Source: Promethearchaeota archaeon (GTDB taxonomy: Archaea; Asgardarchaeota; Lokiarchaeia; Sigyniarchaeales; SOKP01). From it: a stretch of DNA of 12,343 nucleotides. Below, one piece after another: positions 5,141-12,343 of the stretch. The DNA lies in the NCBI GenBank assembly GCA_048939015.1, contig JBHLPW010000099.1:1-12343 (forward strand), in the 5' to 3' direction. Numbering within the stretch: position 1 is the first letter of the stretch; each line of letters begins with the position of its first letter. The notes under the pieces were generated by a model. It was not told where the DNA came from and made no database searches. It saw only the letters and a program-made list of their open reading frames with translations. Made by a program: the position numbers and the translations under genes.

Positions 5141-5803
5141 TCACTTCTTTTTCATTTTTAAGTCTTTTCTAAAATAAGAATCTCCATAGGAAGTATATAA
5201 AACGGCTGCAGGATTATGAGGATTTGATCTATCTTTTGCAATTAGAGTACTAACTGGAGCATTTGAGAGTTGGGTAAAGGTAATATCATGTCCGACGCAT
5301 AAACCAATTATTAAATTCAAATCTGTTTCTGCTTTATTTAAAATTAATGCTTGAGCAACAGGATTACAAGAAACAATTCCAAGAGGATATCCTGTTTTGG
5401 AAAGATTAGTGTAGTCTTCAGGAACTTCCAGATCTGTTTTTTTAATGCTTCCATTTTTACAGCAAACAGAACAAACTTCAAAACCATATTCAATTAAGAT
5501 TTCTGCTGTTTTTTTTGCTTCTTTTCGTAAACCAACACAAAATGCTAATCCAATTTTATTATATTCCATTCCTTTTGCAAATTCAATAGTATCTTTTAAA
5601 CGAGGCCAGTGAATATAACCAGATGCTTCTATGATGGAAGCTACTTTTGTAGTTCTTTTTATGATCTCATTTGTTTTGTAAATTTTCAGTACTTCCTCTT
5701 CGACTTCAGGACTCAAAATCATAGGACAATTTCCTATATTTTCGTTTTGTTTCTCTATGGTGCAAAAATTAATGCTATTACATTTATGACAAGTAGGATC
5801 CAT
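5141..5803 (-). CDS. DUF1847 family cysteine-rich putative metal-binding protein
   Basis: Motifs CHKC...C...CP, PRLKDTIEFAK.M.Y.KIGLAFCVGL, VCCK.G, CNPVAQA.ILN, GLCVGHD, LIAKDR...HNP. Confidence 0.85.
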   Translation of the reverse strand: MDPTCHKCNSINFCTIEKQNENIGNCPMILSPEVEEEVLKIYKTNEIIKRTTKVASIIEASGYIHWPRLKDTIEFAKGMEYNKIGLAFCVGLRKEAKKTAEILIEYGFEVCSVCCKNGSIKKTDLEVPEDYTNLSKTGYPLGIVSCNPVAQALILNKAETDLNLIIGLCVGHDITFTQLSNAPVSTLIAKDRSNPHNPAAVLYTSYGDSYFRKDLKMKKK

Positions 5804-6919: not shown

Positions 6920-7615
6920 TTGAGTAGTAAAATGCCAGAAGAAGAATTGCCAGAGTCAGAAAAAGAGAGAATTATAGTTTTTCAATACAATGATCAATTG
7001 AATGAGTTCCAAGAATTAGAGCTAGAAGAAGATGTTGAGATATCTGAGTTACTGGATCCTGACTTTGTACTCCTTATTGTTGACCCATCTAGATTTAGAG
7101 TCTGGATTTGGCATGGAAGCAACACAACAACACGAATGAGATTTATTGCTGCCCGGTTAGCTCCAAGTATTAGAGACAGGTACGGAATCGGTTTTAAGAT
7201 ATCAGCTGTAGACGAGGGGAATGAAACCCTAGGTTTCAAAGTAGCAGCTAAGATGGAAGAAGAACCGGATTATGCAGAAGCCCAAACGGGACCCGCATAT
7301 AAAGAAACTGCGGAAGATTTAGAATTGATAGAAGCGTTATCTAGAGAAAAAATACTATTACTTTTAGAAAAAGCAGGAGTTCCAGAAGGATATGACCGAA
7401 AAATGGTTATAGTAAAAAATAAAATATTTGGTTACAAAGAATATGATAGAAATTACTTAGGTTCAGTAATTAAAGAGAAAAAGCTCTTTCCATTAAAAGA
7501 AGAAATTGATGATGGTCCATATTTAGCGGAAAATTATATCCCAAGAATGCTTTTTTCTTATAATAATGTTGTTTTAACTGAACTTCTACAAAAATCTGAG
7601 AGAAATAATAATTAA
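6920..7615 (+). CDS. Gelsolin-domain protein with C-terminal extra domain (Asgard 1DGelX-like architecture); start may be the ATG at 6932
   Basis: LLDPDFVLLIVD....VWIWHGSNTTTRMRFIAARLA..I...ISAVDEGNET..F matches the gelsolin repeat consensus (L.S.DVFILD...IYVW.G..S...E...A...A...V.EG.E...F), followed by about 115 aa of unrelated sequence. Confidence 0.8.
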   Translation: MSSKMPEEELPESEKERIIVFQYNDQLNEFQELELEEDVEISELLDPDFVLLIVDPSRFRVWIWHGSNTTTRMRFIAARLAPSIRDRYGIGFKISAVDEGNETLGFKVAAKMEEEPDYAEAQTGPAYKETAEDLELIEALSREKILLLLEKAGVPEGYDRKMVIVKNKIFGYKEYDRNYLGSVIKEKKLFPLKEEIDDGPYLAENYIPRMLFSYNNVVLTELLQKSERNNN

Positions 7616-8649: not shown

Positions 8650-10176
8650 TCAGTTTTTATCTCGTATTTCAATACCATCAGGCAAAGTCACACTATCAAC
8701 CATTAATCCCTCGGCTTGCCGATAATCATCAAAAGACCTTTCAGCAACTTTTTTCATATAATTTTTCAATTCCTCCTCCATTTTGTTGTCCAAGTCATTT
8801 GGTTGATGATCTTTTAGAATTTGATCAACTTTTTCTCGTGCCATCTGGACTATATCTTTTCCACCTTTTTTAAGCCAAGTTGTTCTTCTTGCTCTATTCG
8901 CTAACCGAGGCATATACAGCTCAGATTTCATATGTTTTCGCGTATGATTTTCTGCGAGAAAATTAACACCTTTTACGTCACTCGTTGCTACTTTCTTTAT
9001 TACATCAACTGCTATAGTATCTTCATTAACCGTTATTCCTTCCATTGCTCTTTTAACCATACCTACTAAATCATCATCAATTACAAGTAGTTCTAAGGCT
9101 TCAACCAAAGTGGCCTCATATGTGCCCGCACAGGTGATGTAATTAACTCCTGCCTGAGCAGCTAACATAAGAGTTTGTAACCTTTCATATCCATTTTGTA
9201 AATCTAACACTTTTGAATCTGTTCCTGCACCGGGACCTCGTGAGGGAATGTTATAAAATCTAGCAAGTTGAGCAATACCTGCAGTAATTAAACCCATCTC
9301 CACAGAACCCATTGCAGAGTTTCCCGTTCTCATATCTGTGATGTGTGAGACCGTTCCAAAAAAGATTGGAGCTCCATGGTTAAGGACTTGAGATAGTACG
9401 GCACTTCCTACTATTTCCGCATTAGTTTGGGTTAATAATCCGGCTAAGGTAACTGGAGATGATGCTCCTGCTAAAGCTTCAGGAGCTATAATCGTTGGTT
9501 GTTTATATTTTGTGAAAACAGCAAATCCATTAGTCATTAATATAGGAAGGTGTAGAGGGCTAGTAGGATTCATAAAACCAACAAATCTTGGCTTTTTAAT
9601 AAGTTCCTCATCACCACCTACAATGATAGATGCCATGTTCATCATATCCTGTGAAGCTAATCTTCCTAGACATCCTAATCCATAAGGTTTTTTAGTATTT
9701 TTTACCCATTGATATATACATTCAGAATGAATAGTGATATATGAGATATCATTTGGCCACACATCAATATGACTGCAATTTATGTGTTCCAAACTATCAA
9801 CAATTTTTATCTGCTGAATTGTATCAGCGAGTACAGTCTTTCTTACACCTGTTCTTTTCGATTCATCCTTAATTTTAACCGGTGTCCCTATAGTAGCAAA
9901 TTGAGTGTTTTTGGTATTGACTTCAAAATTAAATTTCCCATCTGGACCATATAATTTAAATGAATCTGGAACTGTCTTTAGCTTGTCCTTTATCATAGAC
10001 TCGGGGAATTTTACAAAATCTGAATTCTCAGATACAATTGCTCCATTTTCTTTTAATAGATTTCGAGTCTCTTGAGCATCTATTTTAATTCCAACGTCTG
10101 AGAGTAATTGCATTGAAGCAGAATGAATTGCTTCAAGCTCATCATTGGAAAATACTTCTATTTTCTTTAATCTCAT
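8650..10176 (-). CDS. Non-pyrrolysine MttB-superfamily corrinoid-dependent methyltransferase (substrate unknown)
   Basis: IHSASMQLLSDVGI, NPTSPL, AGASSPVTLAGLLTQTNAE, GAPIFFG, DMRTG, QLARFYNIPSR, TDSKVLDLQNGYE, LVIDDDL, FLAENHTRKH. No in-frame TAG; the Pyl-equivalent site just before TDSK is Gly (GGA, 9223-9225). Confidence 0.93.
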   Translation of the reverse strand: MRLKKIEVFSNDELEAIHSASMQLLSDVGIKIDAQETRNLLKENGAIVSENSDFVKFPESMIKDKLKTVPDSFKLYGPDGKFNFEVNTKNTQFATIGTPVKIKDESKRTGVRKTVLADTIQQIKIVDSLEHINCSHIDVWPNDISYITIHSECIYQWVKNTKKPYGLGCLGRLASQDMMNMASIIVGGDEELIKKPRFVGFMNPTSPLHLPILMTNGFAVFTKYKQPTIIAPEALAGASSPVTLAGLLTQTNAEIVGSAVLSQVLNHGAPIFFGTVSHITDMRTGNSAMGSVEMGLITAGIAQLARFYNIPSRGPGAGTDSKVLDLQNGYERLQTLMLAAQAGVNYITCAGTYEATLVEALELLVIDDDLVGMVKRAMEGITVNEDTIAVDVIKKVATSDVKGVNFLAENHTRKHMKSELYMPRLANRARRTTWLKKGGKDIVQMAREKVDQILKDHQPNDLDNKMEEELKNYMKKVAERSFDDYRQAEGLMVDSVTLPDGIEIRDKN

Positions 10177-10186
10177 TTTTCCATCT

Positions 10187-10828
10187 CTATTTAACTAATT
10201 TTTTTATCAGTTTAACTGCTTCTATAGCATCATCTGCCCATCCATCTGCACCAATTTGATCAGCCCATTCCTCAGATGTAGGGGCACCACCAACAATTAC
10301 TTTATATTTTTCTCTTAACCCTCTATTTTTTAATTCATCTATAACTTGTCGTTGGAAATCCATAGACATGGTCAATAATGATGAAAGTCCAATCACATCA
10401 GCATTCACTTCTTCTGCCTTTTCTACAAATTTTGCAGCAGGAACTTCTACTCCCAAATTGAAAACTTCAAATCCATTTGAAAAAAGAAAACTCCCTACAA
10501 GGTCTTTTCCAATACTGTGCACATCACTTTCTACTGTACCTATAACCACTTTTCCGGCTGTTTCTTTACTTTGTCCAGATTCTTTAATTACAGGGTCTAA
10601 GATATCATCAATTGTATTTTTGACAACATTTGCAGAACCAACTAAATCTGGTAGGAATATCTCTTCTTCTTCAAATTGCTTACCTATGTATTGCATGACA
10701 GATCCAATTATTTTTAATAAATCAACTGCAGAGGCTTCATTTTTTTCTATTGCCGAACGACAGATCTCTTTTAAACCCTCTTCATCCCATTCTATAATCG
10801 CATCTTTAATACTTTCTTCAAGCGTCAT
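10187..10828 (-). CDS. Methyltransferase cognate corrinoid protein (MttC/MtbC-like)
   Basis: N-terminal cap (GKQFEEEEIFLPDLV), B12-binding motif GTVESDVHSIGKDLV (DxHxxG), GLSSLLT, VIVGGAP, IGADGWADDA. Ends 10 nt before the MttB start. Confidence 0.95.
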   Translation of the reverse strand: MTLEESIKDAIIEWDEEGLKEICRSAIEKNEASAVDLLKIIGSVMQYIGKQFEEEEIFLPDLVGSANVVKNTIDDILDPVIKESGQSKETAGKVVIGTVESDVHSIGKDLVGSFLFSNGFEVFNLGVEVPAAKFVEKAEEVNADVIGLSSLLTMSMDFQRQVIDELKNRGLREKYKVIVGGAPTSEEWADQIGADGWADDAIEAVKLIKKLVK

Positions 10829-10952
10829 TTTTTAATTGTTTGAAGTAATTATAATATTCATTTTTATAATTTCAAATATGTAAAAAACTTTATCTAAATA
10901 TTCAATATTGAAATGTTATGCCAGATATACTATATTAACTTAAAGAGAGAAT

Positions 10953-12239
10953 GTGAAACTTATGCCAGAAATAAAAAAAACTTTTCAGGAGATAAATAAA
11001 GAGAACCGAATTGAATGGGATAAATTAAATTTTGATACTCAACTGATCCGTGCTGGTGAAGATCCGTACCCTGAAACTTCACATAGTATACGAACGCCTA
11101 TTTATGCTACAAAATCATATACTTATTCTTCTTTTAGTGAATTATCGAAAAATCATTATCACTATTCAAGGATGGAGAATCCTACAGTTTATGCGTTAGA
11201 TTATAAATTAGCAACACTACATAAAGGAGAAAGTGCGATCTCTGTAGCATCTGGTATGGCTGCCGTTCATTTAGCATGCTCAAGTGTTTTACAGCAACGA
11301 GTAGAACGTATTCGACCAAATAAGCTCAAAAAATTAATTCTAGAATCAAAAGGTAAAGGGATTCCTAATATTATCATTCATATCAATCAATATGTTGATA
11401 TTTACCGAATTCTTACAAGATTATACCCTCAAATGGGATTTGAATGTAGAATAGCAAATCTCTGTGATTTATCAGAAGTAAAGAACAAAATTGATGAAAA
11501 TACGAAATTTATTTTTCTAGAATCACCAGTAAATCCTTCTATTGATATTGTAGATATAGAAGCTTGTGCGAATTTAATTCATGAAGTAAATGGTAAATGT
11601 ATCGTTGATAATACATTTGCATCTCCTGCTCTTCAGTGTCCTCTCGAATTAGGTGCAGATCTTGTTGTTGAAAGTCTTACTAAATATATCAATGGTCATG
11701 GAGATTGTTTAGGGGGAGCTATAATTGGTCCTAAGAATGATATTCAAGACATTCGGTTTTTTTGGCATTCAATGCAAGGTCCTGTATTAAGTCCTTTTAA
11801 TGCATGGCTAATTTTACGAGGAATTAAAACTCTAAATTTAAGAATGGAACGCCATTCCTCAAATGCAATGCAATTAGCTCAATTTTTAGAAAAACATCCT
11901 AAAGTTAGAAATGTTGTATATCCTGGATTAAAGTCTCATCCTGGTCATGAAATTGCTAAGAAACAGATGAAAGATTTTAGTGGAATGATTGGATTTGAAT
12001 TAGAAACGGTTGAAGCAAGTAACAAATTCATTGACCTGTTGAAATTAATTAAGGTTGGAGTTTCTTTAGGTGATTTAACTTCTCTTATTGAATATACATC
12101 TATTATGACAGGATTAGAGCTTGCACAATGGGAGTTAAAAGCTATGAAAACTTCAAAAACTCATTTTAGATTTTCTGTAGGATTAGAGGATCCAGAGGAT
12201 TTAAAAGCAGATCTTGAGCAAGCGCTAAATCAATTATAA
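10953..12239 (+). CDS. PLP-dependent Cys/Met-metabolism enzyme (methionine gamma-lyase / cystathionine gamma-synthase family), divergent; start may be the ATG at 10962
   Basis: YSRMENPT, ASGMAA, FLESPVNP, VDNTFASP, SLTKYINGHGD (PLP-Lys244), RGIKTLNLRMERH, VYPGL, GVSLG, FRFSVGLED. Confidence 0.93.
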   Translation: MKLMPEIKKTFQEINKENRIEWDKLNFDTQLIRAGEDPYPETSHSIRTPIYATKSYTYSSFSELSKNHYHYSRMENPTVYALDYKLATLHKGESAISVASGMAAVHLACSSVLQQRVERIRPNKLKKLILESKGKGIPNIIIHINQYVDIYRILTRLYPQMGFECRIANLCDLSEVKNKIDENTKFIFLESPVNPSIDIVDIEACANLIHEVNGKCIVDNTFASPALQCPLELGADLVVESLTKYINGHGDCLGGAIIGPKNDIQDIRFFWHSMQGPVLSPFNAWLILRGIKTLNLRMERHSSNAMQLAQFLEKHPKVRNVVYPGLKSHPGHEIAKKQMKDFSGMIGFELETVEASNKFIDLLKLIKVGVSLGDLTSLIEYTSIMTGLELAQWELKAMKTSKTHFRFSVGLEDPEDLKADLEQALNQL

Positions 12240-12297
12240 ATTCTTTAATTTAATGAATATTTATTGTAAAAAAAAAAAAAAAAGAAATTACATTATT

Positions 12298-12343
12298 ATG
12301 AAATTAAGTAAATTAAAAGTGTTAACAAGAGAAGAGATTGAAC
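12298..12343 (+). CDS. Partial CDS, probable N-terminus of a second MttB-superfamily methyltransferase
   Basis: ATG 12298 gives MKLSKLKVLTREEIE running off the window; it aligns without gaps to the start of the MttB at 10176 (MRLKKIEVFSNDELE). Only 15 codons are visible. Confidence 0.6.
   Translation, partial: MKLSKLKVLTREEIE

Follow-up and report, generated by a model that had tools for sequence, protein, structure and literature searches.

To our knowledge, MttB-superfamily methyltransferases that do not use pyrrolysine (non-Pyl MttBs) are numerous in anoxic habitats, and the few substrates that we know of are all quaternary amines. For one member, MtgB, the ligands of glycine betaine have been defined experimentally as Tyr97, Arg312, His348 and Phe356 (PMC13080624). 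Arginines of the Arg312 type bind the acidic group of the substrate and are conserved across all characterised non-Pyl members (PMC13080624). The preference of a further enzyme, MthB, which requires phosphocholine and not choline (PMC12155760), fits this rule. Non-Pyl MttB genes have been noted previously in Asgard archaea (PMC11291895). Here, we analysed 12,343 nucleotides of DNA from a Promethearchaeota archaeon (the window). The window is an entire contig, C7, of a 4.86 Mb genome that is 95% complete. At its right end, genes for two non-Pyl MttBs and a corrinoid protein accompany a gene for a pyridoxal 5'-phosphate (PLP) enzyme of the Cys/Met family, hereafter the lyase. Together with a transporter gene on a second contig, they are gained and lost as one unit. 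On balance, we favour the view that this unit serves one Loki-type Asgard family as an accessory catabolic cassette, acting by import, then MttB demethylation, then the lyase reaction.

Organisation, gain and loss of the cassette

MttB1 (508 amino acids, PF06253) is encoded on the minus strand at 8650-10176. The gene for its predicted cognate corrinoid protein (10187-10828, minus strand; 213 amino acids, PF02310 and PF02607) lies 10 nucleotides upstream. The lyase gene (PF01053) is divergent and occupies the plus strand. Its open reading frame (ORF) opens at GTG 10953. However, ATG 10962 is the more probable start since homologues have 425 amino acids, the length encoded from this codon (10962-12239). 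A preliminary description of the window gave the divergent gap as 124 nucleotides. This holds from the GTG, and the gap is 133 nucleotides from the likelier ATG. The region between the divergent genes (10829-10961) is AT-rich and probably holds both promoters. Intergenic blocks TATAATTGAAAAT, GTAAAAAAGTTTATCTAAAT and AATATTGAAA are kept among loci sharing the window's gene order. In these loci, the conserved blocks of the divergent region include two ATTGAAA repeats, about 40 nucleotides apart, and TATA-like boxes.

MttB2 starts at ATG 12298 on the plus strand, 58 nucleotides past the lyase stop codon. Its first 15 codons (12298-12343) are in the window, where the MttB-like frame runs off the contig. 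The remainder was found on contig C109, which holds the complete gene (L010:64-1572; 502 amino acids). The first 109 bases of this contig repeat the end of the window (12236-12343), with one extra A as the sole mismatch. The assembly break point falls in the spacer between the lyase and MttB2 (12240-12297), which has a poly-A run of A16 in C7 (12266-12283) and A17 in C109 (L010:31-49). Hence, the assembler split one locus. The preliminary description had placed MttB1, the corrinoid protein, the lyase and the MttB-like start exactly as we find them; the second MttB, there called probable, is real and complete. MttB2 is followed by a convergent MFS_2/GPH transporter gene (L010:1625-2995, minus strand) and then by an ORF of 72 amino acids, orf72 (L010:3162-3380, minus strand).

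Distribution was surveyed in 400 Asgard genomes, using lyase matches at E <= 1e-40. In the window's family, 75 of the 134 genomes have a match, and nearly all of these matches are members of the lyase clade. Outside the family, the clade occurs in a single sister-family genome and two odd bins. The MttB1/MttB2 clade was found in the same genomes. Lyase and MttB genes lie no more than 4 kb apart on one contig in more than 60 species-level genomes. The core comprises MttB1 and the corrinoid protein, divergent from the lyase (and MttB2), with the transporter convergent. It recurs with varied order and flanks. In a scan of genome contigs, 12 of 12 Asgard loci retained cassette neighbours where flanking DNA exists. 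The order is lyase-MttB2 in the window's genus and MttB2-lyase elsewhere; linkage is retained in both. MttB2 is missing from several cassettes (the g2 loci, L019, L022 and L024). According to the preliminary description, lyase orthologues unlinked to MttB elsewhere would have spoken against coupling. Wherever flanks exist, they are linked to MttB and corrinoid genes. The synteny proposed there thus holds for Asgard genomes; a search for bacterial members of the lyase clade found none.

Within the window's genus, all 22 MttB1-positive genomes are also lyase-positive. Four lyase-only cases are fragments at contig ends. Approximately 27 genomes of the genus, many at least 95% complete, lack both lyase and MttB1 and have no PF01053-like match at 1e-40. 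The cassette-free congener G207 is 100% complete and has the same left flank as the window, with genes for C13 peptidase, TPR, DUF1847, Ogg, gelsolin-like and VTT proteins. Here, orf72 is within about 340 bp of the VTT gene. Exactly MttB1, the corrinoid protein, the lyase, MttB2 and the transporter are absent. Hence, the cassette is gained and lost as one insertion or deletion unit.

Could the PLP gene simply travel with the methyltransferase cluster through shared ancestry, with no metabolic coupling? In keeping with this, all carriers belong to one order, and the TPR, DUF1847, Ogg, gelsolin-like and VTT genes are also syntenic in close relatives. However, the core is retained amid unrelated flanks (L093, L094, L095, L096 and L099, of which L095 is from another family). 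Furthermore, linkage is kept when the internal order is reshuffled, the insertion or deletion covers precisely the five genes, and co-presence and co-absence are perfect within the genus. Because reshuffling, unrelated flanks and the exact deletion all preserve it, we consider the tie robust, and an uncoupled passenger gene extremely improbable.

Three side observations concern the flanks. The DUF1847 gene (5141-5803, minus strand; 177 bits) is kept left of the cassette in several congeners. It is present beside the cassette-free locus of G207 and is therefore outside the unit. The gelsolin-like protein (6920-7615, plus strand; 231 amino acids) has no Pfam match, and its nearest protein-atlas cluster is a 'gelsolin-like domain protein' of Promethearchaeota (score 0.98). 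The genome encodes two paralogues of this protein, and only in some genera is its gene syntenic with the cassette. In another cassette-free congener, a weak match to an MttB C-terminus (37%, 123 amino acids; L125:12025-12348, G205:C38) follows the VTT gene near a contig end. This piece may be a remnant or a divergent copy.

The lyase and its clade

The lyase matches PF01053 with 394 bits and falls under every NCBIfam equivalog cut-off. For the methionine gamma-lyase (MGL) equivalog, TIGR01328, it scores 347 bits against a cut-off of 549.7. Its catalytic set is intact. Briefly, TKYINGHGD, VDNTF, QY.., YSR and FRFSVGLED align with K210, D185, Y113, Y58/R60 and R374 of Citrobacter freundii MGL (2rfv). 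These are the Schiff-base Lys, the Asp at PLP N1, the stacking Tyr, the Tyr-x-Arg pair and the carboxylate Arg. Among 1.84 billion representatives, the clade forms a single 50%-identity cluster (671 bits), and the score drops to 277 bits at the next protein of normal length. The closest relatives come without exception from Asgard metagenome-assembled genomes; bacterial members were looked for in this collection and none was found. The Tyr loop reads YTG(I/V/S/T) in approximately 105 of 121 clade sequences, with YVDI only in the window's nearest kin. We considered whether the Asp of YVDI binds a cationic side chain throughout the clade. This was rejected since only 10 of the 121 members carry Asp. 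In the window's kin, an acidic residue may have moved from position 240, which is Glu in most members, to position 115.

The lyase gene is the genome's only true PF01053 gene. Hence, there is no trans-sulfuration pair. Because the gene is also co-absent with MttB1 in congeners, and its clade is isolated, the lyase is predicted not to be an ordinary trans-sulfuration enzyme, as the preliminary description had allowed it might be. Other Asgard PF01053 genes, at 38-48% identity (L109-L112, L119 and L120), have no MttB nearby. Beside one further Asgard PF01053 gene (L114) a corrinoid gene lies 4.8 kb away.

A sole PF01053 gene would also suit an anabolic role. The PLP enzyme would then be a sulfhydrylase forming homocysteine, to be methylated by MttB-loaded methyl-corrinoid, and the cassette would make methionine. 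Consistent with this, MttB, a corrinoid protein and homocysteine S-methyltransferase are encoded together at another locus in the genome. In Ruegeria, MtgB-type demethylation and methionine synthesis use common components (PMC12478193). Conversely, half of the congeners lack the whole block, including 100%-complete genomes, which is a poor fit to essential biosynthesis. The cassette has no homocysteine methyltransferase, and its dedicated importer suggests catabolism. We judge methionine synthesis to be a highly unlikely function.

The methyltransferases, order of steps and candidate substrates

Both MttB frames are free of internal stops and match PF06253 nearly end to end (MttB1, 347 bits, profile positions 28-494 of 500; MttB2, 324 bits, positions 28-491 of 500). 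They score 417 and 383 bits with TIGR02369, the trimethylamine MttB equivalog, for which the cut-off is 525. Aligned to 7xcl, the pyrrolysine position is Gly in MttB1 (GAGTDSK) and Val in MttB2 (GAVTESK), with no in-frame UAG. The paralogues share 53% identity, against only 28-29% with the two remaining MttBs of the genome. As placed by distances to solved MtgB and MttB only, they are about equidistant from Pyl-MttB (7xcl) and MtgB (9yce, 2qne), at 224-261 bits. The equivalent of MtgB Arg312 (PSRGPG) is kept in both and in approximately 140 orthologues. The positions of Tyr97 and Phe356, the cation-pi pair, and of the carboxylate ligand His348 are occupied by Ile, Thr/Ser and Cys. We do not file MttB1 and MttB2 as MtgB because three of the four glycine-betaine ligands are replaced (PMC13080624). 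For the same reason, independent use of glycine betaine, which the preliminary description held up as a challenge to coupling, is not indicated.

The MttB1 clade has the signature APEALAG, PYGLGC and YITCAGTYE; MttB2 has APAASAG in place of APEALAG. The conserved Glu of APEALAG could pair with an alpha-ammonium group. Two near-invariant Cys residues, in PYG(L/M)GC and YITCAGTYE, are common to both paralogues and private to their clade, with one at the MtgB His348 position. They may form a metal or redox site. The corrinoid protein has B12-binding and B12-binding_2 domains and a DxHxxG motif (DVHSIG, residue 102). Its best NCBIfam match is MtgC (198 bits, below the cut-off of 310). Adjacency of this DxHxxG protein suggests that it is the methyl acceptor of the MttBs.

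The preliminary description proposed that the lyase and the MttBs act in series on a methylated amino acid. On genomic grounds, this is well supported by the linkage, the joint gain and loss and the dedicated lyase; the substrate, step order and methyl acceptor we infer. MttB probably acts first, since both paralogues retain the acid-binding Arg that all characterised non-Pyl members have (PMC13080624). The preliminary description had also offered the reverse order. Here, the PLP enzyme would cleave an S- or N-substituted amino acid, and the methylated leaving group so released would be demethylated by the MttBs. Gamma-lyases release thiols or sulfides and, in the window's layout, the lyase heads the plus-strand operon. 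However, methanethiol, dimethyl sulfide and trimethylamine have no acidic group for the kept Arg to bind (PMC13080624, PMC12155760). Moreover, trimethylamine use needs pyrrolysine, absent here, and MttB2 precedes the lyase in most genomes. Action of the lyase first is accordingly disfavoured, and we regard it as quite improbable.

With demethylation first, the GPH/MFS_2 symporter would import a zwitterionic methyl-onium compound resembling an amino acid. MttB1 and MttB2 would pass its methyl group or groups to the corrinoid protein that they share, in its Co(I) state. From there, an MtrH-type enzyme encoded elsewhere would transfer the methyl group to a pterin; RamA-type activases would likewise be encoded elsewhere. 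At other loci, there are three genes for MtrH, two for RamA-like proteins and seven for corrinoid proteins. Hence, the folate/pterin outlet put forward in the preliminary description is plausible, although it is not part of the cluster. The lyase would then gamma-eliminate the demethylated amino acid, giving 2-oxobutyrate, ammonium and a leaving group. The 2-oxobutyrate would be fermentable.

Our best single guess at the substrate, and a tentative one, is S-methyl-L-methionine. This would be converted to methionine and then to methanethiol and 2-oxobutyrate. The guess follows because a single demethylation yields methionine, a natural substrate for an MGL-derived enzyme. Methanethiol release would also explain a gene gained in genus g13. 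In six of six g13 genomes (L099:11528-12523 and L104-L108), a divergent URO-D-family gene (331 amino acids, PF01208 56 bits, HxC..C) lies directly after MttB1. The URO-D family includes corrinoid:thiol methyltransferases and, in g13, the methyl group may exit via this added enzyme instead. The gene is absent from the window's genome.

Several points weigh against this pathway and substrate. We know of no MttB-family enzyme that uses a sulfonium, and we know of no GPH transporter that carries amino acids. S-methylmethionine would need one MttB, yet most cassettes have two. Substrate-side residues of the lyase differ from those of MGL and vary within the clade; therefore, methionine specificity is not readable from them. 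The g13 gene is no more than a hint of sulfur chemistry because O-demethylases and a chloromethane dehalogenase also belong to the URO-D family (PMC13222342). Genome counts overstate independence, since the carriers are related to one another. Finally, the support for the pathway is genomic.

The transporter bears on a different candidate. It matches PF13347 with 213 bits and TIGR00792 with 169 bits (cut-off 231), and among solved structures it is closest to the MFSD2A lysophosphatidylcholine symporters (82 bits), followed by MelB (62 bits). This likeness is a weak hint that the substrate may be homoserine betaine or a betaine-lipid head group, namely N,N,N-trimethylhomoserine, either in free form or as its glyceryl ether remaining from diacylglyceryltrimethylhomoserine (DGTS) lipids. 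MttB2 and MttB1 would strip the N-methyls stepwise to the primary amine. The lyase would then gamma-eliminate the O-substituent, or water, to leave 2-oxobutyrate. Cys/Met-family enzymes do eliminate gamma-O-substituents of homoserine. Putative pocket positions differ between the paralogues, being Glu/His in MttB1 and Ala/Ala in MttB2, which would suit different methylation states. Moreover, alpha-N-betaines, including glycine betaine and proline betaine, are substrates of characterised non-Pyl MttBs (PMC13080624). Set against this, PLP binds the amine only after loss of all three methyls. We know of no non-Pyl MttB that demethylates tertiary or secondary amines, and the cassettes without MttB2 noted above fit poorly with stepwise removal. 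A literature search found no paper on anaerobic demethylation of DGTS or homoserine betaine. The genome has approximately 27 MFS_2 paralogues, so transporter type says little. We therefore consider a betaine-lipid substrate unlikely.

The clade-private Cys pair, one residue of which occupies the His348 position, permits a direct thioether route. An MttB metal site built from these residues would demethylate methionine, or a similar thioether, to homocysteine. By removing homocysteine as H2S and 2-oxobutyrate, the lyase would pull the unfavourable reaction forward. MGL-type enzymes desulfhydrate homocysteine, and methionine is plentiful to a peptide fermenter. However, methyl transfer from methionine to a pterin is strongly uphill, as judged from the thermodynamics of methionine synthase. 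We know of no metal site in the MttB family, and the role given to the cysteines is pure conjecture. Direct use of a thioether thus seems very unlikely.

Other loci encode related machinery. An orthologue of the cassette transporter occurs in one genus of another Asgard family (60-64% identity, compared with 36-38% for the next paralogue). There, in line with the proposed pathway, it again neighbours an MttB gene, being tail-to-tail with an unrelated non-Pyl MttB, and a PHP-domain gene is next (L113:4106-9286 and L115-L118). A different PF01053 gene lies 1-3.5 kb away. One cluster (L011, G000:C20, 3808-14118) has four tandem glycerophosphodiester phosphodiesterase genes with genes for an ADP-forming CoA ligase, a fourth MttB, MFS_2, a PIG-L deacetylase and acyl-CoA synthetase. 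It may serve to process the head group of glycerophosphocholine. We considered its pairing of MttB and MFS_2 as support for lipid head groups as cassette substrates. This was weakened by the number of MFS_2 paralogues and by the low identity, only 26%, between the copies of C20 and the cassette. The window's genome also has a second corrinoid operon (L012, G000:C70, 7933-12518). Along with a corrinoid protein and MttB, this operon encodes RidA, a PLP enzyme resembling D-Ser dehydratase, and a stand-alone homocysteine S-methyltransferase; the set resembles a split methionine synthase supplied by a methylated amine.

Comparison with described systems

Association of an MttB pair with a dedicated lyase and importer narrows the substrate search to amino-acid-like onium compounds. 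Should a sulfonium such as S-methylmethionine prove to be the substrate, S-methyl donors would be added to the range of the MttB family. Asgard archaea of coastal sediments would then compete for methyl-sulfur compounds derived from plants or algae. If betaine lipids are used, the cassette would be the first anaerobic route for their head groups and would contain the first non-Pyl MttBs to demethylate tertiary or secondary amines. Whichever the substrate, a concrete methylotrophic and fermentative capability would be added to Loki-type archaea.

A literature search found nothing combining MttB with MGL or describing this cassette; pairing of MttB with cystathionine turned up only in an unrelated context. 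The preliminary description's view that no characterised MttB system is coupled to such a lyase thus stands. The only accessory enzyme of an MttB system described is MthK, of the MthB/MthC/MthA/MthK phosphocholine pathway in Eubacterium limosum (PMC12155760). That pathway resembles the cassette in that its MttB-family enzyme relies on an accessory enzyme encoded with it and acting on the same substrate skeleton. However, MthK is a kinase that prepares the substrate, whereas the cassette lyase most likely uses up the product, and the two systems differ in MttB lineage and host domain.

The MtgB/MtgC/MtgA system of Desulfitobacterium hafniense (PDB 2QNE, 9YCE) likewise has a non-Pyl MttB, an adjacent DxHxxG corrinoid protein and the Arg312 equivalent. 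Similarity to MtgB extends over the full length (240-245 bits). Unlike the Mtg system, the cassette has two MttB paralogues, replacements at Tyr97, His348 and Phe356, no MtgA-type methyl-acceptor enzyme in the cluster, and an attached PLP lyase and putative GPH importer. Pyl-MttB of Methanosarcina barkeri (PDB 7XCL) is of the same superfamily and is the top solved match of MttB1 (261 bits). In contrast to this enzyme, the cassette MttBs have Gly or Val in place of UAG-encoded pyrrolysine, and Arg where Pyl-MttB has Tyr.

For the lyase, the best solved relatives are the MGLs of C. freundii (2RFV) and Pseudomonas putida (1GC0), with 295 bits and approximately 40% identity. The lyase retains the whole fold-type I Cys/Met catalytic set and carries the MGL-like VSLGD motif. 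However, MGL Cys115 (YGCT) is Asp in the window's lyase and Gly in most of the clade. A deletion of 6 amino acids shortens its N-terminal lid, and the lyase also carries a basic insert of about 20 amino acids and has YTS(I/V/L)MTG (YTSIMTG in the window) in place of HPASMTH.

MtgBCD of Ruegeria pomeroyi (PMC12478193) shows that one corrinoid protein can link MttB-type demethylation to methionine metabolism. Unlike the cassette, that system is aerobic and bacterial, has no PLP lyase, and uses a bidirectional methyltransferase that serves methionine synthesis. The component families of the cassette are themselves known.

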